Shown here: one piece after another, positions 1 through 24,398 of the stretch | How positions within the stretch are numbered: position 1 is the stretch's first letter | Layout of the letters: each line of letters starts with the position of its first letter | Source of the DNA: a virus | Length of the DNA: 24,398 nt | Strand: one strand, 5' to 3' | IMG/VR virus record: IMGVR_UViG_3300012979_000023 | Span: 1 to 24,398 of that record | Position numbers and translations under genes: made by a program | The notes under the pieces: model-generated | Told to the model about the DNA's origin: nothing | The model's database searches: none | What the model saw: only the letters and a program-made list of their open reading frames with translations

Positions 1-123
1 CATATCCTTCTTTATCGTAATAAAGGGCACGGATACAACCTGTTTCAATATTACGAATACGACCAAAATTTGAAACTTCATAAGTTGGTTCTTCTGTAAA
101 TTGCTTCCAAATTTCTTCTTCGC
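1..123. repeat. Terminal direct repeat, copy A (identical to 24276..24398); circular-closure overlap of the contig
   Basis: Direct comparison: 'catatccttctttatcgtaataaagggcacgg...ccaaatttcttcttcgc' occurs at 1-123 and again at 24276-24398 (window end). An ORF reads continuously across the junction. Confidence 0.95.
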
Positions 124-446: not shown

Positions 447-1466
447 TTAGAGATTAGAAATTTTTCCTTTAATATACTTTAATTCTTTTTCTATCTTCTT
501 TTGGCTATCCACGAAGGTGCGGGCAAAATCTACTTGTAAATTAGAGATTTCAACTGTATCTCGTTCGCTTTCATAAGGATAACGGACTATTTTTACGACA
601 CGCTGATATTGTTTAATACGTTTAATCTTATCAACAATCATAACCGCGTCGCCAATAGAAACAGAATTACCTAATTTGGACAGGGTTAATTTATAACTTG
701 CTCTTGGCATTGCGATTTGATTAAGATAATTTTCTGCTTTGCGTTTTAAAATATCAGCGACCTCGATATCCTCATCAATCCATACTTTTTCAATATACTT
801 ATTGCTATAAGTAAAATTCTCTAAATAGTTTTTGTCATTATTAACTACCGCTATTGTTAATCCATCCTTTCCATAAGGGTAAAGGACAGTGGCATAATCA
901 TAAGTATTAGATTGTTTCTTCAATAATTTTAAGTTAAGTTCATTAGAGTAATAAGCCCCTAAATCACTACCTAAAAAATCATATACACGCATTATCTTAT
1001 TTTTTGTATCAAACCAAATATCGTGCCCACAATAGGCTCTTACGTCTTTTATAGCGTCCAGAGCAATTATATTGGCTTCTTGTTTAGTCATCATAGTTCT
1101 ATTTTCGCTATTATACTCCAATTGCCAATCAGTATTCCACAAACAATACTCATAAATAGATTGCGGGTTCATATCCAGACAGTCAAAATATTGGAATAGA
1201 GAGCCTTGAAGACTTTCAATATTAGGGCTACAAAAAACTTGAATATATTCGTTATCTTCATTAAGTATTTCTTTAATTACATAACTATAATCCTTGGTTT
1301 CTACATAATTTTCTTCTTGTAGAATTTCTAAATTATAATCATTACAAATGGCTTTGAAACGCAGGGATTTAGTCCCCGCGTCCAAAGTCTCAATTGTATG
1401 AACATCTTTTAGATTACTATCCAGTAGGGCAAGAAAATTATGCTCGGTGTCATACACTTTTATCAT
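447..1466 (-). CDS. Tail-tip protein, Tal N-terminal-domain type (phage minor structural protein N-terminal region, gp27-like); no C-terminal extension
   Basis: 339-aa ORF directly after the Dit-type genes. It starts 'MIKVYDTEHNFLALL...LRFKA...' and ends '...YKLTLSKLGNSVSIGDAVMIVDKIKRIKQYQRVVKIVRYPYESERDTVEISN', which resemble siphophage Tal / prophage-tail N-terminal domains from memory. Confidence 0.7.
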   Translation of the reverse strand: MIKVYDTEHNFLALLDSNLKDVHTIETLDAGTKSLRFKAICNDYNLEILQEENYVETKDYSYVIKEILNEDNEYIQVFCSPNIESLQGSLFQYFDCLDMNPQSIYEYCLWNTDWQLEYNSENRTMMTKQEANIIALDAIKDVRAYCGHDIWFDTKNKIMRVYDFLGSDLGAYYSNELNLKLLKKQSNTYDYATVLYPYGKDGLTIAVVNNDKNYLENFTYSNKYIEKVWIDEDIEVADILKRKAENYLNQIAMPRASYKLTLSKLGNSVSIGDAVMIVDKIKRIKQYQRVVKIVRYPYESERDTVEISNLQVDFARTFVDSQKKIEKELKYIKGKISNL

Positions 1467-1477
1467 AATTTTCCTCC

Positions 1478-1831
1478 TTAAATATAACGAGGGTTATATT
1501 CTATTGAAATGGATGCCTGTAATCCGTTATTAATTTTTACGACATTTCTGCCGGGTTTTAGTTTGGGGAATTCCCAGGCGTCATAAAGCCCAAACGCATT
1601 CTCGTCATTGACAAGAACCGTGCGGTTTTCGCCGTCAATAACTAAATTATCTCCCATTTTAATACCCGAAACATTAATAGGTTCGTCGCTTAAACCCTCT
1701 ATTGTTAATTTGATGAAATCCACCTTGGGGATAAAAGTAATTATACAAGGGGCTGGGGCAGTCCCGTTATTTACGATAACAAAACTGCTCCCAGTTTCAT
1801 CAAACTCTATTGGAAAATAATTTTGTTCCAT
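1478..1831 (-). CDS. Distal tail protein (Dit) C-terminal galectin-like domain, encoded as a stand-alone 117-aa protein
   Basis: Has its own AGGAGG RBS. Motifs 'VIVNNGTAPAPCIITF', 'GDNLVIDGENRTVLVN', 'WEFPKLKPGRNVV' and 'EYNPRYI' parallel the C-terminal half of canonical Dit proteins (e.g. the SPP1 gp19.1 pattern N-G-x-x-P-x-I ... GD-x-L-x-ID ... L-x-P-G-x-N). Confidence 0.7.
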   Translation of the reverse strand: MEQNYFPIEFDETGSSFVIVNNGTAPAPCIITFIPKVDFIKLTIEGLSDEPINVSGIKMGDNLVIDGENRTVLVNDENAFGLYDAWEFPKLKPGRNVVKINNGLQASISIEYNPRYI

Positions 1832-1848
1832 AGGTTTGACCTCCTATT

Positions 1849-4800
1849 TTACAGAACTTCACTCGTATTGTTAGCGAGTTGTATCCAACCGCGACCAGTA
1901 TAAGCCCAGTCAGGATTGTTAGTGCTTACATAAGGAACAGTAATACGCTCGCCGTAAAGGTAAATGCCGAGTTTATATTCTTCATTTGCTATTGGCACAG
2001 AGTAGTAATTAGTATCTCTCGCAATTGCGTAGTTCTTATTTACTTCGGTGGTGTTAAGAGAAGTATAACTCTCTGGCACCCAGAAGGAACCATCAAAGTA
2101 ATAACGTCCATTATCTGTATCATAGTAATAATATGTAGTTAAGATATTAGAAGCATTACCATAAGAGTAAGTAGTGCCCTGTGCGTCTGCCGGATTAGTA
2201 TAAACATAGAAATTCATAGAATTATCTGCGTCATTAACCAAGCAGATACTCTGTTGTAGTTTAGTAAGTTTTAACTTATCAAACTCACCAGCGTAAATAG
2301 AAGAAGTTTTACTTTCGAACCATTGGTCGCAAGAGAAATACCATTCACCAACTACTCTATTGTCTGCGTCAGCAGTATATTTAGAAATAGGAATTATTAA
2401 GCCCGGCACTAATTGACGATTTTCAGGAGCATAAAGGTCAGGATACTGATAAGTTTGAACTTCACTATTGGTTTGAACAATATAATCTGCTTCGGTAGAA
2501 ACAAAGTCCCATCCATTGAAGTAATTATAAGGTTCGTCAATACTCTTATTGCGTAGAGCCACAATGCTATCAGGCACTGCCAAGAATTCACCCGTAATTA
2601 GATTATACCAGCCATTATCGGGTATTCGTAAATCTTCACCATTAAATCTATACCAAGTGCCTTTTGGAACGGGAACCCAATAGTCTCTAATTAAAAGATT
2701 TTCATAGACGCTAACATTATAACCTAATGTAGTAGAACCGCCATTCGTAAAATCTATATATTTAATATTGGTATATCTCATTTTATAAGCAGACGTAGTA
2801 TCTGCGATATCAGTTAAACTATCGTCGAACGGTTTAAACGCATACTTACCATATAGATTTGTATTATCTTTTATGATTTCAAATTTACTTGTGTCTGGAT
2901 TCCAGAAGAAATACTCATATGGTTTTTGTGTATATACATCTTGTGTGCCAACAACCACGTTAGTAGTATTTCGGCAATTAGATATATTGGCTTTTAAGCA
3001 TAAACCGGGGGTTATTTTTTCTGGAATTATTGGTGCCTTATATTTTATCGTAGTGCCTGGAAATGGTTCCATATCATTTTTAGTATTACGACCTCGTGTG
3101 GTTCCAATATTCACACTGGGCATATAATCATCTATTCGTAATGAAGTGCCCGCTGGAAGTCTTTTATTGGTTTCACCTGGTTGTGAAGCACTATAATAAT
3201 AACTATCAAATGTAGAAACATAAGGATAATCATCATAAGGAATATTGACAATTTCTACCGCATAATCAATATCATAAATATTATCAGTTGGAGGATAATC
3301 CGGATTATTTAAGTCTAATCTCAACTGAATATTGACTGGAATTTTTGTCCTCTCATTAGCAGGACCAATCTTGGGATGTTTAATCTTGTAAGTGTTTGGA
3401 TAGAAAGGAGCATATAGAACATATTGAGAACCAGTTCTAATTAACTCTTCAAATGAGAACACAATATCGCCAGAAGCGTCCCAAGAACGAGGGTTCCACA
3501 TATAAATGCCGTCAGGATAGCCCGCAGGTCTATACAAATTCTTATCAAAACCGAAATAATCCCAGGTTAAAGCGAGTGGAGTATCACGATAAAGTTGTGG
3601 ATTAATAGGCTGATTATTTTCATCTACACGCCAAGAGGTTTCAATGAAAATATCCCAGTCGGGGTTCCAATCACTCATAGAACAAGAGAAACCGGCACGA
3701 CCTAATTCATTAGCCTCGTTCTTATTATCCTGATAATAAATACAAGTATAATTATATACTGTTTCAGGATATACGAAATCTAATTCGTGAAGTGCGGAGA
3801 ATGCCTCGTAAGTATATTCACCGGTGTATTCATAATTAGTGAAATCGTGGAAACGTAGGCGTTTAGCTTCTGGGTAAATACCTACATCAGCCAAAGAAGT
3901 GGCAGTGCTAAAATCTATATCATTCAAATCGATTGCGGTTAAGCCTAACGCATTATACAACTTACCTGCCTGGTTAAAGGAAATATCTTCTGCCTTAACC
4001 CAACTCTCAACCTCTGGGATATAGCACCATAAGCGGTCGATAGTAAGTTTATTAATATGGACTTCACTCTTAAACGGAATAGTGGCAGTTGCTTCATCAG
4101 GAACATCGTAGTCTGGGTTCTGTCCAGGACCGGTCATAGGCTCGGTCGCACTTAACATAATCCAACCTACTGGATATTCTTTTAAGCGACCCCAACCATT
4201 ACGCTCTTCAATGATAGTGTAAGTATCACGTTCAATTATCATCGCAAGAGTTTGATATTTACGAGCAGGTCCTCTATGGATACCAGCGTATTTATTCAAT
4301 ACTCTTACCTGATAAGGAATGAAATATTCGAACTTTTCATCTTCGTAGAGAGCATCGTGATAGTGGTTGTAATATTTAATCGCACCATTGGGGTTCAATA
4401 CTACGCCGTCTAAATCACAATTTAAGTAATTGGGGTTTTCTTCATCCACAGTAATTAAATCAGTTTCATAAGCACCACCGCGATAATATTCTACGTATAG
4501 AATATTGTCTGCTTCATCCGCAGTAAATTTATCATAAACTACTATTGGAGATGGAGCGTCAATGAATGCCTGGATATTATTACTTGCGATAATATTTTCA
4601 TCAAATACTAATCGTCCGTGTTTGAATTTGTCATCATAGTATAGGTCTAAATCAATACCAAGGTCGGCTAAACTATTGGCGTTTTTGATATCTTCAATAG
4701 AGTAGAAAATATCTTTGGAGCCTATACGATAATTATCTTGATAATATACAACAGTCTTGGTGAATGTTCTTAATTTATAATAAATATTCGCCAAACCTAA

Positions 4801-7800
4801 TTCGTATATTTCTTTTAAGGACATACTCTGGAAGGAAAGGTCCGTGTCTAAATCTATCATACCATCCAAATGAAATTCATCAGGTTTATAGTCATTAAAA
4901 CGTAGCATATCTTCCAGGGTTTCTTCTTGTGGATTGTAATAGGTAGGAACATCTACATATTGATTGGCGATAAACGCGTTATCCCAATCATAGTAGTTTT
5001 CAGTAATTTTGCCGTAAATTAGTGGGTCATACATTACTTGGAGTGGTAATACTTCTTCTGGTTTAATAGTGATAACTTTTTGAGCCAACGCAAGATTGCC
5101 TTGGTCATTGATACCACTAAAATCATTCATAGTATATGTGCCACCCTCATTGCTATTACCAAAGAAGATTTCGGTGATTAAGTCAAATAAGCCATTAGCA
5201 GGCATTACATAATCAAAAATCTTGTCGCCTTCGGCTACGGGGATTAAATCACGAACAAGACGGTCTCTATCATAAAGTTTTAAACCCCATACATAGCATC
5301 CACCAACCTGCGGATATTGTGGCATTGGGAAACTGGCGTAGTTAATATTTCTGGTTTTAGAAACTGTTTGATAAATGATATTACCCTGTGTGTCAGTTCC
5401 TACGCCTTCCAAAGTTTCTATAACAATAGAACCGTAATTTTCATCTTCGTAAGGATTAGTTCCTATCACGGCACTCTCTAAATTGTTAGGAGTTCCCATA
5501 CCAGAAATGGCAGGGAATAACATCGGGTTGAAAGGCATTATATTAACTTTTCCGGTATTTGGATTGGTAGCCTGGAATAAAGTGAAAGAACCGCGAGGCT
5601 GTTCTCTTCCTTCAAAGAAGTCATTATCAGTATTTTCGAACTGAACTTGATAAGGAGAATTCATAGTATTTTTATTATAAATTTCAGCATAATTATTATA
5701 CGCGTCTATAATAAAGGTAAAAGGATTACCAAATACTTTTCTTACGGCTGGATTAACTTCTTCTCCCATCTGTCCTGTGCGTCCTAAACAAGAAAGCCAA
5801 CCACCTAATTTAGTTTCACTCGGGAAAGGTATATCTATTTTTTGAGAAATACCATAAAAATTAAACGCATCAATTTCATTATAATTATCATCGTAGGTGC
5901 GGGCTACACCTCTACGATAGCCTCCCATTAAACCAATAGCAGATATAGGCACGTCAGCACCAGGATTAGTAGGACCGCCGGCACCGGTATAATAAGTAAA
6001 ACCATCGAAAGTCTGTGGTCCCAAAGCCGTATAAACCCAACTGCTTACAACAGGAATACGAGGACGCATAGAGAATGTGCCCTTTCCTTTTGCTCCATAA
6101 AATGGGTAATCTGTAATATCAAATGTTTCTCCAAGAGGTGTAGTAATAGTAGTTCCATAAGGACGTTGGCTATTAGGGATAGTATTTAATGGAGCGTGAT
6201 AACCCATAAAATTCAAATAGTCAAAACTCTGTGCTCCATAAGATTGTCTGGCAACTGCCTGGGTCAATCCTAATTCTTTTTGTGTGTAGCCTAAACCAAG
6301 AGCATATCCAGTGAATTCTACACGAAGTCTGCCGATTTCTTTTGGGCGATATCCTAAATCAATATAAGGAATGCGTCCCGCCACAGTGCTTAAATGGTTA
6401 AGAATACTATGAGAAGTTGAAGTATCAAATCCCCAATATAGCACTTTCTGTTCATAAGATGCGTTTTCAGGGTCATCAGGCTCAATTAAAGTCTCATAGA
6501 CAATCGCGATTTCTTCGGCATTAACTAAATCTTCAAATGAATACCAACGAGATGGGTCAGCGAGCATACCGCCACCGCAAATAACAGGCTTAAACTTATT
6601 AATTAATTCATTTGGTAATGTATCTACCATTTGAATTGGGTATTCATAAGTATCAATTGCGAACTCCCAAGAGGTAGAAGCAATTAGATTAGCCTCATCA
6701 ACTTCGTCAGTATAATAATTGATATCTACATATTGTGGTTCTGGGGCATACCAAATTGTGTATGTAGGTTTCAAATCTTCTGGCTTATCGAGTCGTTCGT
6801 CCATACGATACCACTCATAAGTTTCGCCATCCACATAATAGTTTTCTGGTTTTTTAGCATTGAAATCAATATAGAAGTCAATATACTCACCTTCACGGAA
6901 ATCAGACTGGTCAAAAGTCAAAGTTTCAGTGCCGACTACTTCATAAGTGCGGATGCCGAATACCTTCTTGATATAACGGATTACTGTGCTGTAAGTCTGT
7001 GGCTCTTCTTCCATAGGTTTATAGACAATCTCATAAGGAGAATATTCTAAAACACGAGAAAGAGAAACACGTTTGCCAGGATACACAAAATCTGTCTGAT
7101 AGCCTTCTGGCTTATGTTTATTTAAACGAACGATATCGCCAAAAGTAGGAACTTGATAGAAATCACGCTCGCTAATTGGGATAACTTCTTCGCTAATAAT
7201 AGTTCTTGTGCCGTCTAATTCTTCTCTAATATAATTGACGTTGATGAAATTGTTTTGCTCCTGATAAACAACATTGAAAGTCTTATTGTTAAGATTATCA
7301 AAATTAATTACAAAAGGAGTTTCTAATTCCTTAATAACGCCAGGGTTATAATAAGCCGGCTGGTATTTATCTACATTAAATTCTACATAGGGGTCCCATT
7401 CTTTTTCGCCAGTAAAATCATTACCGCGGAACCAAACCGTCATAGTCTGGAATAGGTTATCACCCTTATAGTAATTAACATAGCAATGTCCAATAGTGTG
7501 TTCCAAGTTAGTATCGGTGTATCTATCATCATCGATAATATTGAAACTATTTAATTTAGTGCCGTCTTCGAAGAAGGTCTGGCTTACTTTATCATATAAG
7601 CAATTGCTTGGGGCGACTTGATTACCAATCTTGTCATAGAACTGAACTGGAATAAAATCGCGGATTAGAACATCACCTTGATAAATACGGCAACTATAAA
7701 TACCAATACCCGCTAATCCATCAGCATAAGAACCGGAGTTATTATTGGCGAATAGATATAATGGATAAGGCATCTGGGCACTCTCGGTTTGTAATTTATT

Positions 7801-10383
7801 AGTATAAGTAAAAATTACGTTGGAGTAGCCTGCTTGTGCGGAAGAATAAATACCAGAGTTAGAGCCGAAGCCGATTGCGTTATCCTCTGTTAAGGTAAGC
7901 ATATTAGTATTCTTACCTGCCTTGGCTTCATAGGTATTGACTCCCGTTAAGTTGGTGCCATACTGCGTCTGGTTATTAAAACGCATAAAATAAGAGCCTT
8001 GATTGCTGGTGCTACCAAATAGGTAAGCATAACCGGCATTTACTTCGTGTAATGGCACATAATTATCTACACGCTTACATTCCATAATAACTGTCAATTT
8101 AGACATATCAGTAGTAGATACGCCAGTATTAATAAACGCGTGGTTTAAAGTCCATTCGGGATGTAAGTGCTCATAATCGCCTAAATCGTTATGTTGTAAG
8201 AATAAGAAGCGATGTGGATAGTCAATTCCATCAGGGTCTTCTGGTTCAACCTCTTTGATATATACAACATCAACAGAACTTAAATCCAGAAGGGCAGAGA
8301 AATTAACTGGACCATTGTATTGTAGAATGCCGTCGCCCGCATAGCCTGGCTTATAAGCATTTAAGTCTAATCCTAAATCAAATAGAGTAGTGCCTAATTC
8401 AAAATCAATTACTCGATAAGTTATATTAGAACTACCTATCCAGTTCATATCCGCTACTTCGTCGATATAATAGCGGACTGGGGTTTTATATTCAGTCGCT
8501 AAATATAGGACATCATAAGCAGAGCCTAAACTCTCAAAATCCATTAGAGCAGTAGAACTATACTTATCAATAATGCCGGGTTCATAATATTCGGGACGAT
8601 ATAGGTCTAAATTAATAATATCCTTTAAACGAATACCACCGACTACATCGGCTTCATTAATAGTAATAATACTTGTATTAATTGTGCTATAAGCACTACT
8701 TAATTCTTGTCTATATTTAACAATAATGTTCTTGGTTCTTAATTCTACAATCTCACTATACAAGATAATAATAGGAGATGCTTGTGTTAGTGCGGAAAGT
8801 GAAACTTCGCCGTCATAAGAAGCCAATTCATCAAATTGATATCCTTCCGGTCTATGTAAAGAAATAGGAATAATATCATTTAAAATTGGGTTATTTAAGA
8901 ACATTAAAGCATTAATTTCTATACGCTCTTCAACTGGGGTGCTATCAAAAGAACCAGTATAATATCTCACTACAATTGGGAAATTAATTTCCTTATAGTA
9001 GATTTGTAGTATGCCGGCATTCATAACACTATGATAAGTCTCATAAGTATCAGCATTATAAAGAGCACCCTCTTCATACTCACTGGTATGATACTTATCT
9101 AAATTAAGGTTCATATCACGGACTACATCAAAATCAGTTTCAAATGCGTCCATATATTTAGTAGTAATTGTGTTAGTTGCTACACGATACCAATTGGGGT
9201 AAGTGCCAACGTAGTATTCTACATAAAGAGTATTTTCGGTTCTATTATAACGCACCACATAAGATAGTCCAAGAGTATCATAAGTGATAGTATCATTCTC
9301 GCCAAAATCTACGACGAAACCTTCATTAAAATAGCCACCTTCTGGGCGGAATGCGTTTAAACGAATAATATCTTTCAGGGTCATACCTTCAATGATATCG
9401 CTTTCCCGCACACTCAATACAGCAGTGTCTATTAACTCATAGGTGCCGTCATCTTGTTCCTTTTCATAGCGAACTGTAATGTTTTTACTTTCCTCATTTT
9501 CTATCTTTTGGAAATATACGTTAATTGGGCTGGCTTGTAGCAATGCCTCAACTGTTAATTCGCCGTCATATCCAACAGATGCTTTGTAGCCTTCTGGTTT
9601 ATAGGTTTTTACTTCTACCAATTGGCTAATAGAATTAATATTCTTTAACTCCGGATAAGTGAAAGAAATAATGCGAGACAATAGTTCATTGTAATATCCT
9701 GTGCCGTCGTCCATATAATAAGCAACATTTAAATTGTAAGATATGGGAGCATAATTAATAATAAGGGCACTCAAAGATTGTAAGTTTTCATAGTTGAGTT
9801 CAATACCACCCAAATTAGTGGCAACACCCATATTATAATATTGAGGCAGATATTTATTTACATCCACGCCGATGCTTTCTAATGTATTACCTTCTTCTTC
9901 AAAAGAAGACGCTCGAATAGTAATACTTTCAGTTGCCAATAGAGTAGAATTATTCTGGTAATAAACTACCGTTAATTTAAAAGAATTCGTCATATTGGCG
10001 TTGGTAGTATAAATTTCTCGTGAGCCCTTGGCGTAATCACTTGTTAGAGTATAACTAACAACAAAATTACCATTTTTAAGACGATTAGGTTTAGATGCTC
10101 CTTGTAGGCTCACATCAAACAGCAAACTTAAATCATCAAATTGTAGGGTAGCCTTTTTAAGCATCTGGGTTAGACGACTTATTCTCATAAAGGCTTCTTC
10201 TTCATCGGCACACAATACTAAAAATTCTAATTCGATAGTCTTAAATCTATCTTGTTGTCTAATGGCAGTAGGTTGAATATCACCATCCAACCAATCTTCC
10301 ATAGTATCAACTTTATTACTATTTAAGACACGATTATAGAGTTGTATGCCGAGACTGCTTAAATCAATGCCGTTAATTAACAT
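1849..10383 (-). CDS. Giant 2,844-aa tail-tip adhesin. It has a Dit-like N-terminal domain (aa 1-~128), about 16 repeats of ~83 aa (MucBP/beta-grasp-like), three lectin/jelly-roll-like modules, and SH3b-like modules
   Basis: Single uninterrupted 8,535-nt ORF. The N-terminus 'MLINGIDLSSLGIQLYNRV...IELEFLVLCADEEEA...LQFDDLSLLFDV' is Dit/Sipho_tail-like. A motif '(Y/H/F)(K/R)P(E/G)(G/Y)Y' recurs at aa 262, 346, 511, 596, 678, 1007, 1090, 1177, 1832 and 2284. 'L(I/V)RD(F/L/Y)(I/W)PV' occurs at aa 905, 1708 and 2563. An SH3b-like segment lies at aa 2022-2080. Confidence 0.9.
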   Translation of the reverse strand: MLINGIDLSSLGIQLYNRVLNSNKVDTMEDWLDGDIQPTAIRQQDRFKTIELEFLVLCADEEEAFMRISRLTQMLKKATLQFDDLSLLFDVSLQGASKPNRLKNGNFVVSYTLTSDYAKGSREIYTTNANMTNSFKLTVVYYQNNSTLLATESITIRASSFEEEGNTLESIGVDVNKYLPQYYNMGVATNLGGIELNYENLQSLSALIINYAPISYNLNVAYYMDDGTGYYNELLSRIISFTYPELKNINSISQLVEVKTYKPEGYKASVGYDGELTVEALLQASPINVYFQKIENEESKNITVRYEKEQDDGTYELIDTAVLSVRESDIIEGMTLKDIIRLNAFRPEGGYFNEGFVVDFGENDTITYDTLGLSYVVRYNRTENTLYVEYYVGTYPNWYRVATNTITTKYMDAFETDFDVVRDMNLNLDKYHTSEYEEGALYNADTYETYHSVMNAGILQIYYKEINFPIVVRYYTGSFDSTPVEERIEINALMFLNNPILNDIIPISLHRPEGYQFDELASYDGEVSLSALTQASPIIILYSEIVELRTKNIIVKYRQELSSAYSTINTSIITINEADVVGGIRLKDIINLDLYRPEYYEPGIIDKYSSTALMDFESLGSAYDVLYLATEYKTPVRYYIDEVADMNWIGSSNITYRVIDFELGTTLFDLGLDLNAYKPGYAGDGILQYNGPVNFSALLDLSSVDVVYIKEVEPEDPDGIDYPHRFLFLQHNDLGDYEHLHPEWTLNHAFINTGVSTTDMSKLTVIMECKRVDNYVPLHEVNAGYAYLFGSTSNQGSYFMRFNNQTQYGTNLTGVNTYEAKAGKNTNMLTLTEDNAIGFGSNSGIYSSAQAGYSNVIFTYTNKLQTESAQMPYPLYLFANNNSGSYADGLAGIGIYSCRIYQGDVLIRDFIPVQFYDKIGNQVAPSNCLYDKVSQTFFEDGTKLNSFNIIDDDRYTDTNLEHTIGHCYVNYYKGDNLFQTMTVWFRGNDFTGEKEWDPYVEFNVDKYQPAYYNPGVIKELETPFVINFDNLNNKTFNVVYQEQNNFINVNYIREELDGTRTIISEEVIPISERDFYQVPTFGDIVRLNKHKPEGYQTDFVYPGKRVSLSRVLEYSPYEIVYKPMEEEPQTYSTVIRYIKKVFGIRTYEVVGTETLTFDQSDFREGEYIDFYIDFNAKKPENYYVDGETYEWYRMDERLDKPEDLKPTYTIWYAPEPQYVDINYYTDEVDEANLIASTSWEFAIDTYEYPIQMVDTLPNELINKFKPVICGGGMLADPSRWYSFEDLVNAEEIAIVYETLIEPDDPENASYEQKVLYWGFDTSTSHSILNHLSTVAGRIPYIDLGYRPKEIGRLRVEFTGYALGLGYTQKELGLTQAVARQSYGAQSFDYLNFMGYHAPLNTIPNSQRPYGTTITTPLGETFDITDYPFYGAKGKGTFSMRPRIPVVSSWVYTALGPQTFDGFTYYTGAGGPTNPGADVPISAIGLMGGYRRGVARTYDDNYNEIDAFNFYGISQKIDIPFPSETKLGGWLSCLGRTGQMGEEVNPAVRKVFGNPFTFIIDAYNNYAEIYNKNTMNSPYQVQFENTDNDFFEGREQPRGSFTLFQATNPNTGKVNIMPFNPMLFPAISGMGTPNNLESAVIGTNPYEDENYGSIVIETLEGVGTDTQGNIIYQTVSKTRNINYASFPMPQYPQVGGCYVWGLKLYDRDRLVRDLIPVAEGDKIFDYVMPANGLFDLITEIFFGNSNEGGTYTMNDFSGINDQGNLALAQKVITIKPEEVLPLQVMYDPLIYGKITENYYDWDNAFIANQYVDVPTYYNPQEETLEDMLRFNDYKPDEFHLDGMIDLDTDLSFQSMSLKEIYELGLANIYYKLRTFTKTVVYYQDNYRIGSKDIFYSIEDIKNANSLADLGIDLDLYYDDKFKHGRLVFDENIIASNNIQAFIDAPSPIVVYDKFTADEADNILYVEYYRGGAYETDLITVDEENPNYLNCDLDGVVLNPNGAIKYYNHYHDALYEDEKFEYFIPYQVRVLNKYAGIHRGPARKYQTLAMIIERDTYTIIEERNGWGRLKEYPVGWIMLSATEPMTGPGQNPDYDVPDEATATIPFKSEVHINKLTIDRLWCYIPEVESWVKAEDISFNQAGKLYNALGLTAIDLNDIDFSTATSLADVGIYPEAKRLRFHDFTNYEYTGEYTYEAFSALHELDFVYPETVYNYTCIYYQDNKNEANELGRAGFSCSMSDWNPDWDIFIETSWRVDENNQPINPQLYRDTPLALTWDYFGFDKNLYRPAGYPDGIYMWNPRSWDASGDIVFSFEELIRTGSQYVLYAPFYPNTYKIKHPKIGPANERTKIPVNIQLRLDLNNPDYPPTDNIYDIDYAVEIVNIPYDDYPYVSTFDSYYYSASQPGETNKRLPAGTSLRIDDYMPSVNIGTTRGRNTKNDMEPFPGTTIKYKAPIIPEKITPGLCLKANISNCRNTTNVVVGTQDVYTQKPYEYFFWNPDTSKFEIIKDNTNLYGKYAFKPFDDSLTDIADTTSAYKMRYTNIKYIDFTNGGSTTLGYNVSVYENLLIRDYWVPVPKGTWYRFNGEDLRIPDNGWYNLITGEFLAVPDSIVALRNKSIDEPYNYFNGWDFVSTEADYIVQTNSEVQTYQYPDLYAPENRQLVPGLIIPISKYTADADNRVVGEWYFSCDQWFESKTSSIYAGEFDKLKLTKLQQSICLVNDADNSMNFYVYTNPADAQGTTYSYGNASNILTTYYYYDTDNGRYYFDGSFWVPESYTSLNTTEVNKNYAIARDTNYYSVPIANEEYKLGIYLYGERITVPYVSTNNPDWAYTGRGWIQLANNTSEVL

Positions 10384-10386
10384 TAA

Positions 10387-10572
10387 TTAAATTCCTCCTT
10401 GTCTTTGGACTTCTAATCCAATGTTATTTAACATAGAGGCATTTTGTTCCTCTTGGCTGGGGGCAGACTGTTGAGTTTCTCTTATTACTGTGTCTATATT
10501 TCCACTACTGGAAGTATTTGTAAAGGTTTGTTCAGTCTGCTGTTGAATTAATGACATTACATTTTTTTCCAT
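10387..10572 (-). CDS. Hypothetical Q/S/T-rich 61-aa protein in the tape-measure position
   Basis: ORF with ATG 2 nt after the stop of the upstream gene, ending 1 nt before the giant ORF start. Low-complexity sequence with no recognisable family; coding status rests on tight packing only. Confidence 0.45.
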   Translation of the reverse strand: MEKNVMSLIQQQTEQTFTNTSSSGNIDTVIRETQQSAPSQEEQNASMLNNIGLEVQRQGGI

Positions 10573-10574
10573 AA

Positions 10575-11090
10575 CTATACCTCATTAATCCCTAATTTGT
10601 TAAAAATTTCTTGTCTCTCTTTTAAGGAACCGCCACTGTATCCTTTATCCTCTTTAAGATAAATAGGGTCTTTAATATTTTTCAAGGCTTGACCTACTGC
10701 TAATTTAGTTAAATTTGCTTCCATCTCTTTACGAGTTAAATACCCTTCATATGCGTCTTCAATTTCTTTTGGCGTCATCTTAAAAAAATCAGCGGGGGCT
10801 ATTCCCATTTCGCCTACGGCTTTGGTATATAACCCCCCTATATCAAAAAAGGATGTGAGGGATTGAGGAATGGCTGACATAATACCGGGCATTAAATTAC
10901 CCTCATCAACTGCCGTTTTGACAAGAGCAATTTCTTCATTTGTAATGTCAGGGTGCTGGCTGATTAACCCACAATACAAAATGAATTCGGTATTTTGTTC
11001 CTCACATAGATTTAAATTTTGAGCCAATAGACTTAAACCTTTCAGCCCAAATTTGACCTCAAAATATTTTTGAGGAGTTCTAATAATCAT
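10575..11090 (-). CDS. Tail assembly chaperone-like protein (171 aa); possibly a chaperone fused to a minimal tape-measure-like helical tail
   Basis: Lies immediately downstream of the major tail protein gene (ATGA overlap). The N-terminal 'YFEVKFGLKGLSLLAQNL...ILYCGL' resembles gpG-type chaperones; the C-terminal half is predicted helical by composition. Family not verified. Confidence 0.5.
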   Translation of the reverse strand: MIIRTPQKYFEVKFGLKGLSLLAQNLNLCEEQNTEFILYCGLISQHPDITNEEIALVKTAVDEGNLMPGIMSAIPQSLTSFFDIGGLYTKAVGEMGIAPADFFKMTPKEIEDAYEGYLTRKEMEANLTKLAVGQALKNIKDPIYLKEDKGYSGGSLKERQEIFNKLGINEV

Positions 11091-11476
11091 TTCCGTTCTA
11101 ACGGACCTGTGCCTAAAATGGAAATATTATATTTGAATTGTTTATCAAATACCGCAGTTAAAGGGAAATTTGTAATTAAACCTGTCCCCTTAAAATGAAT
11201 ATCATTTATAATAATTTCCACTTCAATTCCAGCGTTAGACATAAAAGCCTCTTCCAAAAGAGAGAGAGAATTAGAATTGGCTAAATAAATACCATTACAC
11301 TGGATATTCCACATTTTTAGACCGTCCATATTTTCAGCCCATTCCGCTTTGATTTTATTAGTAATTTCAATTGGGGTCATAGACTGATTGAGGGTCGCTC
11401 CTGTTTGTCCGCCTACCGGCTCTTTATTTACATAAAGAATTACATCAATTCCCTTTTGGGCTGGATTAAATGTCAT
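11087..11476 (-). CDS. Major tail protein, TP901-1/Phage_tail_2 type (129 aa from the internal ATG)
   Basis: The track ORF extends to 11566, but AGGAGGAAGAAGATA-ATG at 11476 gives 'MTFNPAQKGIDVILYVNKEPVGGQTGATLNQSMTPIEITNK...WNIQCNGIYL...FKGTGLITNFPLTAVFDKQFKYNISILGTGPL', the typical pattern of this family. The upstream extension overlaps the preceding gene and looks non-coding. Confidence 0.8.
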   Translation of the reverse strand: MTFNPAQKGIDVILYVNKEPVGGQTGATLNQSMTPIEITNKIKAEWAENMDGLKMWNIQCNGIYLANSNSLSLLEEAFMSNAGIEVEIIINDIHFKGTGLITNFPLTAVFDKQFKYNISILGTGPLERK

Positions 11477-11867
11477 TATCTTCTTCCTCCTTTGCGGAAT
11501 AAGTAAGAAGAAAAGTATATCTAATAACACCGTGCTTGCGGATTGGACCAGTCCCATTGTCATCAATAATACGAGCAGATTGTTGATTCGCCGAAATGAT
11601 ATATGGATTAGTCTCTCTTAAATATACTATATTGCGGTTTATGTTTTCAATAATTTCTAATATTTCTTTTTCGCCTGAATAAGTAGAATATACATCCAAC
11701 ATAAAACTAACAGTTTCGGTGGTGGTATCAAATGATTGGCTAATTTGATGCCCGTCTGTGCGGAGCATCAACCAAGGAAATAATTCTTTATATTCTCCAC
11801 TGTCTGTAATATGATAGCCGAGTTTTTGAATTAATTCGTAAAATTGGCGTTTAAGTTCTAAAACCAT
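11466..11867 (-). CDS. Putative tail completion / tail terminator protein (133 aa)
   Basis: Lies directly upstream of the major tail protein gene. Size and position match SPP1 gp17-like / gpU-like proteins; sequence similarity was not confirmed by eye. Confidence 0.5.
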   Translation of the reverse strand: MVLELKRQFYELIQKLGYHITDSGEYKELFPWLMLRTDGHQISQSFDTTTETVSFMLDVYSTYSGEKEILEIIENINRNIVYLRETNPYIISANQQSARIIDDNGTGPIRKHGVIRYTFLLTYSAKEEEDNDI

Positions 11868-12616: not shown

Positions 12617-12835
12617 TTACACCTCGCTATGTAAATCCTCCACGTGCTGGGCTAACATAGCCTCTTTCTTTTCTAACTCATAGACACGCTCAATAACATT
12701 ATTATGAAGATTTACTTTTTTTTCTAATTGTTCAAGGCGATAATTAGTTAATCGAGCAGACGCAATAACACCTAAAATAGAGCCCAAAGCAGTGCCCAAA
12801 AAACCAATTATCGCGATAATTATTGTCTCACTCAT
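12617..12835 (-). CDS. Small membrane-anchored coiled-coil protein (72 aa; one N-terminal TM helix)
   Basis: 'TIIIAIIGFLGTALGSILGVIA' is a hydrophobic helix. It is followed by a heptad-like charged region 'RLEQLEKKVNLHNNVIERVYELEKKEAMLAQHVEDL'. Confidence 0.65.
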   Translation of the reverse strand: MSETIIIAIIGFLGTALGSILGVIASARLTNYRLEQLEKKVNLHNNVIERVYELEKKEAMLAQHVEDLHSEV

Positions 12836-12846
12836 TTCTATTTACC

Positions 12847-13314
12847 TCATTTATTATAAAAAATATTAATTGATGTGGCTTTATATACATTTAATGAAAA
12901 ATTTAACGTTAAAGTCATATCTTCATAAGTAGCAGAGGTAAAATATTTACCAGAAGAGTAAGAATTACTTGTATTTTGATATACTACATTAATTCCGGTT
13001 CCATCATAATAAAGAACCAGAGGGTATCGAACCGCACTTATGTTCAAACCGGAACTATCGTTCGCACATACCATTAAAGCCATAAAAGGCGTATCAGCAG
13101 AAGGTAAATAATCTTCTAAATACCAACTAATAGTAGCACTGCCTACATCACCACGAGTAAGTTGTAGATATTCTAATTCGCCTCCGCCAGTAGTCAAATT
13201 AGAAATTGCCGTAGCCATATTTAATGGAGCAATAAGCCCAGTCTCTCCGGTTTTAGAACGAATAGCATCACCAATAGAAGTTAGAGTGCTTTCTTCAATA
13301 AATACTTTACTCAT
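12847..13314 (-). CDS. Fibre-associated protein 2 (155 aa), sharing the N-terminal 'IGDAIR-KTG' motif with the 381-aa LRR protein
   Basis: 'LTSIGDAIRSKTGETGLIAPLNMATAISNLTTGGG' aligns with 'LSAIGDAIREKTGKEDLLTLDQMPEEIKGISGGG' of the 13823-14968 product. The start codon overlaps the stop of the collagen-like gene (TAATG). Confidence 0.7.
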   Translation of the reverse strand: MSKVFIEESTLTSIGDAIRSKTGETGLIAPLNMATAISNLTTGGGELEYLQLTRGDVGSATISWYLEDYLPSADTPFMALMVCANDSSGLNISAVRYPLVLYYDGTGINVVYQNTSNSYSSGKYFTSATYEDMTLTLNFSLNVYKATSINIFYNK

Positions 13315-13808
13315 TAATAAGCACCCTCCTCTGCGACGCCAATAGCGGATAGAGAAGCATCAATCATAGCCTGAATTTCAGTTGCGGTTTTAAATTGTGA
13401 AACATCAGGAATTTGGATTTCTGCTTTTACCTCATTAACTAAATCTTGCTTTTCGGATTCCGTCCAATAATCTACGCCCTTGACGGGGGCTGGTCCGGTT
13501 AATCCCTGGGGTCCCTCTGGACCCGTTGGTCCTTGAATTCCTTCCGGTCCTCTTTCCCCTTGGGGACCCTGTGGTCCCATTTCGCCCTGCGGTCCTTGTG
13601 GTCCTATCGGTCCCGCAGGTCCAGTTAAACCGATAGGTCCTTGTTCCCCCGGCATACCTTGAAGACCCTGTATTCCTTGGTCTCCTTTGGGACCTTGCGG
13701 TCCTATTGAACCCTGTGGTCCCGCAGGACCTTCTGGACCCTGGGCACCCATAATGGTCATAATTTCCTGCCATTCATTGGAGGCATTCTTAAATTTTAAA
13801 ACACTCAT
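13314..13808 (-). CDS. Collagen-like repeat protein 2 (164 aa; 29 uninterrupted G-X-Y triplets)
   Basis: G-X-Y run '[25 protein letters not shown]...GPQGLTGPA', followed by '[18 protein letters not shown]...[10 protein letters not shown]'. The DNA shows GGN-CCN periodicity at 13490-13745. Confidence 0.9.
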
Positions 13809-13822
13809 TTAGGCATCCTCCT

Positions 13823-15688
<1,866 letters not shown>

Positions 15689-23863: not shown

Positions 23864-24398
23864 ATTTGTGCCTCTTTTGGGTCAGGCTCTTCCGCAAGCG
23901 TGAAATAACCAATTTTAAATGGACTTCGTGCTCGGTGAATATTAGATGAAATCTGGGCTTTGGATAAACCTGTAATTTCGTGTGCCTCATTAATACTACT
24001 GAACTCTTGGATAATTTCCCCTGTTTCAGTATCTCTTAACACTATTGGAGTAGAAGCCCATTTAATAGTAAAATTATATCCGTAAGGACGAATGTTATTA
24101 CGATTTTCCTGTTTAGTGGCAAACCGCAAATTCTTATAATAATTATTATAATGACATCTATCAATATGGTCTATATAAATTCTACCTGCTTCTTCATCAT
24201 AGCCTTCGCAAAAATGTTTTGCGACAACACGATGAATTTTATAAAAACGCTTCTTTTTTCCGAAATTAATTGTGGCATATCCTTCTTTATCGTAATAAAG
24301 GGCACGGATACAACCTGTTTCAATATTACGAATACGACCAAAATTTGAAACTTCATAAGTTGGTTCTTCTGTAAATTGCTTCCAAATTTCTTCTTCGC
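23860..24398 (-). CDS. HNH homing endonuclease, C-terminal part (HNH_3 core plus NUMOD1/IENR1-like HTH). 24276-24398 duplicates the part already listed at 1-123
   Basis: The frame is open from the window edge: '...EGYATINFGKKKRFYKIHRVVAKHFCEGYDEEAGRIYIDHIDRCHYNNYYKNLRFATKQENRNN...IQEFSSINEAHEITGLSKAQISSNIH...'. 'HR..DHID..NN..NLR..T..EN' is the HNH_3 signature. The track's 89-aa ORF (TTG start) is only its tail. Confidence 0.85.
   Translation of the reverse strand, partial: EEEIWKQFTEEPTYEVSNFGRIRNIETGCIRALYYDKEGYATINFGKKKRFYKIHRVVAKHFCEGYDEEAGRIYIDHIDRCHYNNYYKNLRFATKQENRNNIRPYGYNFTIKWASTPIVLRDTETGEIIQEFSSINEAHEITGLSKAQISSNIHRARSPFKIGYFTLAEEPDPKEAQI
24276..24398. repeat. Terminal direct repeat, copy B (identical to 1..123)
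   Basis: See copy A; exact 123-nt identity. Confidence 0.95.

Follow-up and report, generated by a model that had tools for sequence, protein, structure and literature searches.

Can the distal tail protein Dit, to our knowledge the universal hub for siphophage adhesion devices, be encoded as two separate polypeptides? The question is raised by the IMG/VR virus record IMGVR_UViG_3300012979_000023, which we analyzed as a window of 24,398 nucleotides (nt; all positions are 1-based window positions). A first-pass annotation of this window had proposed that the N-terminal half of Dit starts a giant open reading frame (ORF) and that the C-terminal, galectin-like half is a separate gene of 117 amino acids (aa). 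Our results support one Dit divided between the start of the giant ORF and the separate 117-aa gene, based on three independent lines of evidence: the tiling of both pieces on a single Dit in sequence alignments, AlphaFold models that match solved Dit structures, and a two-gene layout conserved throughout a clade of relatives.

The window has identical 123-nt ends (1..123 and 24276..24398, by sequence comparison) and thus represents a complete circular genome of 24,275 bp. All genes near the split dit are carried on the minus strand. The giant ORF (1849..10383) encodes 2,844 aa, makes up one third of the genome, and ends in a TAA stop codon at 1851..1849. It is followed by an intergenic junction of 17 nt (1832..1848) and then by the 117-aa ORF (1478..1831), which has an ATG start, a TAA stop, and a frame offset of 2 relative to the giant ORF. 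The junction reads ...GAAGTTCTGTAA AATAGGAGGTCAAACCT ATG, with an AGGAGG ribosome-binding site (RBS) 8 nt ahead of the ATG. The two Dit domains are therefore not on one polypeptide, being separated by a stop codon, a gap, an RBS belonging to the second gene, and a change of frame. This arrangement is as the first-pass annotation had described it, and the motifs that it quoted from the 117-aa ORF, including EYNPRYI, are all found in the translation.

The 117-aa protein is a complete Dit C-terminal domain

Searched separately with profiles and structures, each half matches Dit. The 117-aa protein covers the full length of Pfam model PF22768 (SPP1_Dit, “Siphovirus-type tail component, C-terminal domain”; model positions 1-97 of 97, E = 2.5e-12, 47.3 bits with a bit-score cutoff of 25) and matches PHROG 33, “distal tail protein Dit,” with an E value of 1.3e-19. 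A hidden Markov model (HMM) of canonical Dit C-domains matches it at 1.7e-35 and in one stretch (12-114), showing that its galectin domain is uninterrupted. A phmmer search of the protein against PDB sequences returned chance matches only.

The AlphaFold2 model of the protein, built with 30 family members, is well supported (predicted local distance difference test score [pLDDT] 87; predicted template modeling score [pTM] 0.80). The fold is an all-beta sandwich spanning residues 16-112; secondary structure is absent from residues 1-15, and the first ten average a pLDDT of 53. Compared with the PDB by Foldseek, the best matches are Dits, namely, those of monocin (9j1k_K), 80alpha (6v8i_AC), NF5 (9m8o), and SPP1 (2x8k), with query TM-scores (TMq) of 0.56-0.68, while galectins rank after the Dits. 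The top 50 structural neighbors in BFVD are all full-length Dits of at least 176 aa, with no stand-alone C-domain among them. The model thus has the galectin fold of Dit and not an unrelated fold, and the assignment made by eye in the first-pass annotation holds by family, profile, and structure. Residues 16-117 form the domain and residues 4-12 (NYFPIEFDE) a conserved tail. The family of small proteins has 26 invariant columns, and P7, I8, and F10 of the tail are among the invariant residues.

The giant ORF begins with the Dit ring domain

The N-terminal half was sought at the start of the giant ORF, in aa 1-128 (10000..10383), where the first-pass annotation had placed it. An AlphaFold2 model of giant aa 1-300 (26 sequences; pLDDT 81) shows residues 1-120 as a beta-sandwich that includes a single long helix (61-75) and a hairpin of low confidence (24-44). 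In the model, this fold is the Dit ring-domain topology with its “belt.” Two small beta domains come after it. The Foldseek matches in the PDB include the Dits of NF5 (9m8o), monocin (9j1k_K), TP901-1 (4v96), SPP1 (2x8k), p2 (2wzp_P), Douge, Bxb1, and 80alpha; for most, the alignments cover about 146-187 columns, that is, the N domain only. PHROGs do not recognize the giant N-terminus, and phmmer and profile searches of it against PDB sequences gave chance matches only.

The two pieces were then placed on an alignment of 68 canonical Dits of 226-243 aa using hhalign. The giant family (aa 1-128) aligns to canonical Dit positions 2-129 (probability 99.9, E = 3.8e-37), and the small-protein family (aa 16-117) aligns to positions 135-236 (probability 99.9, E = 3.7e-37). 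Homology of the giant to canonical Dits stops at about residue 118-128. Unsplit relatives match both halves. By BLASTP, the unsplit 236-aa relative P0196 shares 43% identity with giant aa 3-118 (E = 2e-34) and 40% with aa 14-117 of the small protein (E = 1e-26). The unsplit 230-aa Dit of IMG/VR locus L027, encoded beside a 727-aa tape measure protein and a 571-aa Tal, shares 31% identity with the giant N-terminus (E = 1e-19) and 37% with the small protein. In a MAFFT alignment, a virtual fusion of the two pieces is unbroken, passing from giant residue 118 (...TSDYA) to about residue 5 of the small protein (YFPIEF...).

As judged from these alignments, the two pieces tile one Dit exactly, with nothing missing or duplicated. 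The canonical C-domain HMM finds no Dit C-domain in the giant, even at E = 10, and aa 134-300 are modeled as Mub-like repeats. The first 300 residues of the giant thus do not hold a second Dit domain, nor is one hidden elsewhere in the giant, and the small protein is a complete C-terminal domain.

The two-gene layout is conserved in a clade of uncultured phages

At 90% identity, the homologues of the small protein group into more than 130 clusters, all of them 104-122 aa long; among the clusters listed, all but two are 114-122 aa. Many sit on contigs of 24-29 kb. We examined 20 related loci from different samples, and the two-gene layout was present in every one. The upstream ORF, where complete, encodes 2,844-3,295 aa and stops at TAA or TGA; a Shine-Dalgarno (SD)-like motif follows, the gap to the small ORF varies from -1 to 22 nt, and the frame offset between the two ORFs is 0, 1, or 2. 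These real stop codons, SD-like sites, and variable gaps and frames exclude an artefact and a conserved frameshift.

One long “evolved Dit” gene could in principle have been cut in two by a recent pseudogenizing mutation or by an error of sequencing or assembly, and some of the related JGI contigs do contain evident errors and many broken genes. This explanation has a negligible chance of being correct: the giant ORF is intact over 8.5 kb, the layout recurs in 20 independent loci with TAA or TGA, an SD-like site, and ATG, and the more than 130 small-protein clusters keep a uniform length and their 26 invariant columns.

Many of the relatives use an altered genetic code. In most (L004-L008, L011, and L014-L026), TAG codons stand in frame at Gln positions of the giant and small genes, which can be read only with genetic code 15 (TAG = Gln). 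The window phage and loci L012 and L013 have no in-frame TAG within these two genes. The first homologue search with the giant N-terminus returned only short fragments; these were ORFs cut short either by an in-frame TAG, in relatives with the altered code, or by the noise of long-read contigs.

Such recoding points to unusual decoding in the clade, and in 6 of the 20 loci both ORFs share a frame, so it could be asked whether the ORFs are joined in translation by programmed frameshift, read-through, or bypass, leaving the galectin domain at the far C terminus of the giant. We find this very improbable. The giant always stops at TAA or TGA and never at the recoded TAG, and in the same-frame loci a second stop (TAA or TAG) stands directly after the first. 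The variation in gap and offset leaves no conserved recoding signal, and each small ORF has its own SD-like site and ATG. The two genes are thus independent of each other, and the split layout is conserved in a large clade of uncultured phages.

The remainder of the giant is an adhesin-like extension

Beyond the ring domain, the giant continues for aa 129-2844 (1849..9999, including the TAA) with modules recognized by AlphaFold2 and Foldseek, HMM repeats, and a PHROG match. Iterated HMMs found at least seven Mub-like repeats within aa 134-1200, with E values that are inflated by self-training; a BLASTP self-comparison of the giant revealed none at E = 1e-3. The model of aa 134-300 matches the Mub-repeat surface protein YwfG (7yl4), and two jelly-roll-like modules are also present in the extension. 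The only PHROG match in the giant is phrog_1794, at about aa 2007-2077, and it corresponds to the SH3-like, wall-binding C-terminal part of an amidase family, not to the catalytic domain. Giants compared with each other are 39-59% identical over aa 1-2250 and 24-41% identical beyond, making the distal 600 or so residues (2250-2844) far more variable between relatives than the first 2,250.

Directly downstream of the 117-aa gene is a minimal Tal of 339 aa (447..1466; PF06605, 6e-28; PF18994, 8.6e-08; TIGR01665, 3e-20), consisting of the structural N-terminal part alone. Because Tal is reduced to this core part and is not followed by a receptor-binding gene, the giant is likely the main host adhesin of the phage. 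Homology and fold are the evidence that this Dit carries extra host-binding modules (the Mub-like repeats and the SH3-like module) and that the giant arms would bind the host surface.

A sister lineage is split with a smaller extension

We searched 1.84 billion representative proteins with a profile of the N-domain and obtained 164 relatives. By length, three groups can be distinguished: the giants (2,842-3,214 aa), a large intermediate set (400-1,054 aa), and a likewise large set of short proteins (226-243 aa). Members of the shortest group that were scanned (P0196, P0203, and P0207; 236-242 aa) have PF22768 at their C termini in all three cases, and the relatives of 220-245 aa gave coherent N- and C-domain HMMs. 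The 226-243-aa relatives are thus ordinary two-domain Dits.

The intermediate group includes a sister lineage of 468-1,054-aa proteins that have the N-domain followed by InlB-B/Flg_new_2 repeats, an extension of about 350-940 aa, and have no C-domain. In its loci (L028, L029, and L030), which share the small-phage layout of the window, the gene order is tube, a 79-90-aa gene, a 51-58-aa gene, the N-domain-plus-extension gene, a 214-220-aa gene, and a 339-aa Tal; L029 has an additional 59-aa gene between the extension gene and the 214-220-aa gene. The 214-220-aa proteins (L028, 7179..7775; L029, 5618..6262; L030, 11187..11849) match the canonical C-domain HMM with their C-terminal halves at 1e-8 to 7e-10, and their extra N-terminal region of about 115 aa has no family match. 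When a single 220-aa sister protein was compared with the small-protein family by hhalign, the match was weak (E = 0.0018); it is clear only by the canonical C-domain HMM. Homology between the sister extension proteins and the giant reaches giant residue 184 and so extends about 55 residues beyond the ring domain.

The sister lineage thus has the split together with an extension of just 350-940 aa, and it has the first extension module in common with the giants. For this reason, as far as the sequences tell, the fission event and the joining of the ring domain to that module seem to predate giant size. The 8 kb of adhesin-coding sequence looks like later growth rather than a single insertion, and after fission the arm would have grown by adding and diversifying modules. 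The first-pass annotation had pictured an ancestral dit interrupted by about 8 kb; the splitting of a single Dit stands, but one 8-kb insertion is too simple an account for a family whose sister lineage was already split. Two independent fissions are also possible, given that the canonical P0196 scores closer to the giants in the N-domain profile search than the sister lineage does.

The same N-domain family contains classic evolved Dits (P0266, P0291, P0258, and others; 393-439 aa), in which the galectin domain is interrupted at about HMM position 74. Another relative, P0313 (569 aa), is unsplit and carries an unrelated insertion of about 175 aa at the linker and a second insertion in the galectin domain. 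Together with the split forms, the linker insertion of P0313 marks the Dit linker as a permissive site.

A different history would lead to the same proteins: a tandem duplication of dit followed by complementary loss of domains, instead of insertion or fission within one gene. Duplication and fission cannot be told apart by the present state, and in P0196 the segment GAGEIFTIN weakly aligns with GSREIYTTN of the giant (120-128) and also with residues 14-21 of the small protein, a hint of a duplicated first strand. A duplicated first beta-strand at the break, as proposed from this BLASTP result, was dropped as unsupported by the profile alignment. The pieces do not overlap in profile-profile alignment (2-129 and 135-236), the C-domain HMM finds nothing in the giant, and no relative with two full dit copies occurs among the loci and N-domain relatives examined. 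We therefore regard duplication as unlikely, with a small but real chance, and it would alter the history alone.

Tape measure and Tal

The gene order places both split genes directly upstream of tal. Chaperone and tape measure genes normally fill the slot between the tube gene and dit. Here, the slot between tube and giant (10387..11090) holds only a 171-aa ORF (10575..11090) and a 61-aa ORF (10387..10572), both without family matches. NCBIfam had nothing for either protein, nor for either Dit piece, and every homologue found with the 171-aa protein was an unannotated member of its family. Pfam, PHROG, and NCBIfam scans of the ORFs identified no tape measure gene, either upstream of the split genes or elsewhere in the 24,275-bp genome. 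The corresponding slot in the sister lineage has just the 79-90-aa and 51-58-aa genes, whereas unsplit-Dit relatives have normal tape measure proteins of 727-1,121 aa.

Tal shows a similar division. It is 339-340 aa long in both split-Dit lineages (window, 447..1466; L029, 6274..7293; L030, 11861..12880), compared with 571-759 aa in the unsplit relatives. A short Tal is consistent with a shift of adhesion from Tal to Dit.

A model for the divided Dit at the tail tip

In canonical Dits, the hexamer formed by the ring domains lies between the terminal ring of the tube and the Tal trimer, and the galectin domains are peripheral, where they anchor receptor-binding proteins or carry carbohydrate-binding modules (PMC7291167). 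The explanation that we consider best overall, and quite probable, is that the Dit of this siphovirus-type phage, once a single gene, is now encoded as two. The first gene would encode the Dit ring domain followed by about 2,700 residues of modular cell-surface-binding domains in place of the linker and galectin domain. The second, translated from its own RBS, would supply the linker and galectin-like domain as a free 117-residue protein. Six giant chains would form the hub ring, with six arms of about 320 kDa radiating from the tail tip as the main host-adhesion device. The 117-residue protein would probably re-bind the ring periphery noncovalently, through its own residues 4-12 and giant residues 119-133, and we infer that the two polypeptides reassemble at the tail tip.

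The proposed contact derives from conservation around the break. In the split family, giant residues 119-133 have a conservation of 0.77 and residues 4-12 of the small protein 0.81 (0.72 for its domain), whereas in canonical Dits the linker shows the lowest conservation of any part (0.31); the sets compared differ in divergence. The segments flanking the break are conserved, yet residues 1-15 of the small protein are unstructured in the monomer model. This combination suggests that they form a new mutual interface.

Several points weigh against this explanation. One is the unequal divergence of the sets just compared. Another is that Pfam, including PF05709, did not recognize the giant N-terminus, even when it was submitted alone as 133 or 323 aa and at E values up to 10; because of this, the N-domain was assigned by profile-profile alignment, pairwise BLAST, and structure. 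Ring-only Dits also exist, such as lambda gpM (PMC7291167), and a ring-only chain of a gene transfer agent (GTA; 6tba_4A, 134 aa) is among the Foldseek matches to giant aa 1-300, so the hub could work without a galectin domain and the small protein would be free for another role. Finally, with no tape measure gene upstream, the tail-tip assembly pathway may not be canonical.

The third of these points leads to an alternative in which the halves no longer cooperate: the ring alone would be the hub, and the galectin-like protein would now serve elsewhere, for instance as an adaptor attached to the arms or to Tal, as a chaperone of assembly, or as a lectin in its own right. In addition to the existence of ring-only proteins, the C-domains of canonical Dits are peripheral and make no mutual contacts (PMC7291167), and the N-terminal region gained by the sister C-domain protein suggests functional drift. 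On the other side, in both lineages the C-domain gene still stands between the ring-domain gene and tal, and the linker-equivalent peptide of the small protein and giant residues 119-133 are unusually conserved, as fits a retained mutual interface. On balance, separate jobs for the two halves are rather improbable, and we favor reassembly of the divided Dit.

Taken further, the data might describe a clade of phages of about 24-27 kb, with tail genes of siphovirus type, that have an obligate two-gene Dit, a ring subunit that is itself a receptor-binding fiber of about 320 kDa, and no conventional tape measure. We offer this fuller picture tentatively and consider it doubtful. If it were true, the initiation complex of tape measure protein, Dit, and Tal would be rewired, and tail length or initiation would be set by a mini-protein of 50-170 aa or by the hub itself.

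Comparison with known systems

Like the canonical Dits (SPP1 gp19.1, TP901-1 ORF46, p2 ORF15, and 80alpha gp58), the divided Dit has the same two domains in the same order and directly upstream of tal. It differs in consisting of two polypeptides, in a ring-domain chain of 2,844 aa instead of about 250, and in having no tape measure gene upstream. Evolved Dits (Lactobacillus phages J-1 and PL-1, 936-group phages, and streptococcal phages) likewise act as adhesins through added binding modules, but there carbohydrate-binding modules are inserted into loops of the galectin domain and the protein remains in one piece (PMC7291167). Here, the addition comes after the ring domain and is larger by a factor of about 10, and the galectin domain, though encoded separately, remains intact. 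In function the divided Dit resembles both a Dit and an extreme case of an evolved Dit.

The ring is also uncoupled from the galectin domain in Dits that are ring only or have an alternative C-domain, such as lambda gpM, the GTA distal tail protein, and T5 pb9 with its OB-fold. These are small ring-domain proteins, and unlike the present case they have no separate galectin-domain gene. Ceduovirus phages (c2 and bIL67) have a hub of two different Hcp-like proteins (PMC12474359). They resemble our phage in being siphophages of small genome with a hub from more than one gene product; in Ceduovirus, two paralogous ring proteins alternate in a hetero-hexamer, whereas here the ring and the peripheral domain come from a single Dit.

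A limited full-text search of the literature found no description of a split or bipartite Dit. Among GenBank phages we found no split Dit, only the unsplit relatives in Clostridium phage phiSM101 and MT835666, and a tblastn search of GenBank phages with the N-domain gave no match. The Dits met in this literature, among the top 50 BFVD neighbors, and in GenBank phages are all single polypeptides, evolved ones included.

A clean, clade-conserved split at the interdomain linker shows that the ring and peripheral domains are separable, which makes the contribution of an untethered galectin domain testable. It also provides a route to very large adhesins: extensions that no longer have to lead back into the C-domain span about 350 to about 3,170 residues. 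For annotation, Pfam and PHROGs recognize only the small gene, so pipelines would name the 117-aa protein “Dit” and leave the hub-forming giant unannotated.

Other features of the genome

Upstream of the slot occupied by the 171-aa and 61-aa ORFs, the tail genes begin with the tail terminator (11466..11867, minus strand), followed by the major tail (tube) protein (11087..11476, minus strand; PF06199, 3.5e-13; phrog_1407, 2e-21). As listed, the tube ORF has 159 aa, with a TTG start at 11566 and a 100-nt overlap with the upstream terminator gene. The start is more likely the ATG at 11476, which would give 129 aa and fit the 123-132 aa of relatives.

Pfam, PHROG, and NCBIfam scans found no endolysin- or DNA polymerase-like ORF among the ORFs of the genome. 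A 72-aa protein (12617..12835) in the middle of the structural module has an N-terminal hydrophobic segment and matches phrog_1863 (function unknown); besides it, no recognizable holin or endolysin was found elsewhere in the genome. Scans with the N-domain and the small protein found no prophage copies in 185,579 representative bacterial and archaeal genomes, and megablast of 12 kb of the window against GenBank phages gave no match. The window phage has strong Shine-Dalgarno sites, and the nearest cultured relative of its C-domain is in phiSM101; both hint, as conjecture, at a Firmicutes host.

An ORF for a NUMOD4/HNH-type endonuclease spans the circular junction on the minus strand. Two collagen-like (Gly-X-Y) fiber genes and a 383-aa leucine-rich/DUF285-like gene (13314..13808, 13823..14974, and 14955..15359) stand between the head-tail adaptor genes and the neck genes, and their products may be head or neck fibers. 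An overlapping 112-aa ORF in an alternative frame (13435..13773) is probably a by-product of the Gly-X-Y repeat.

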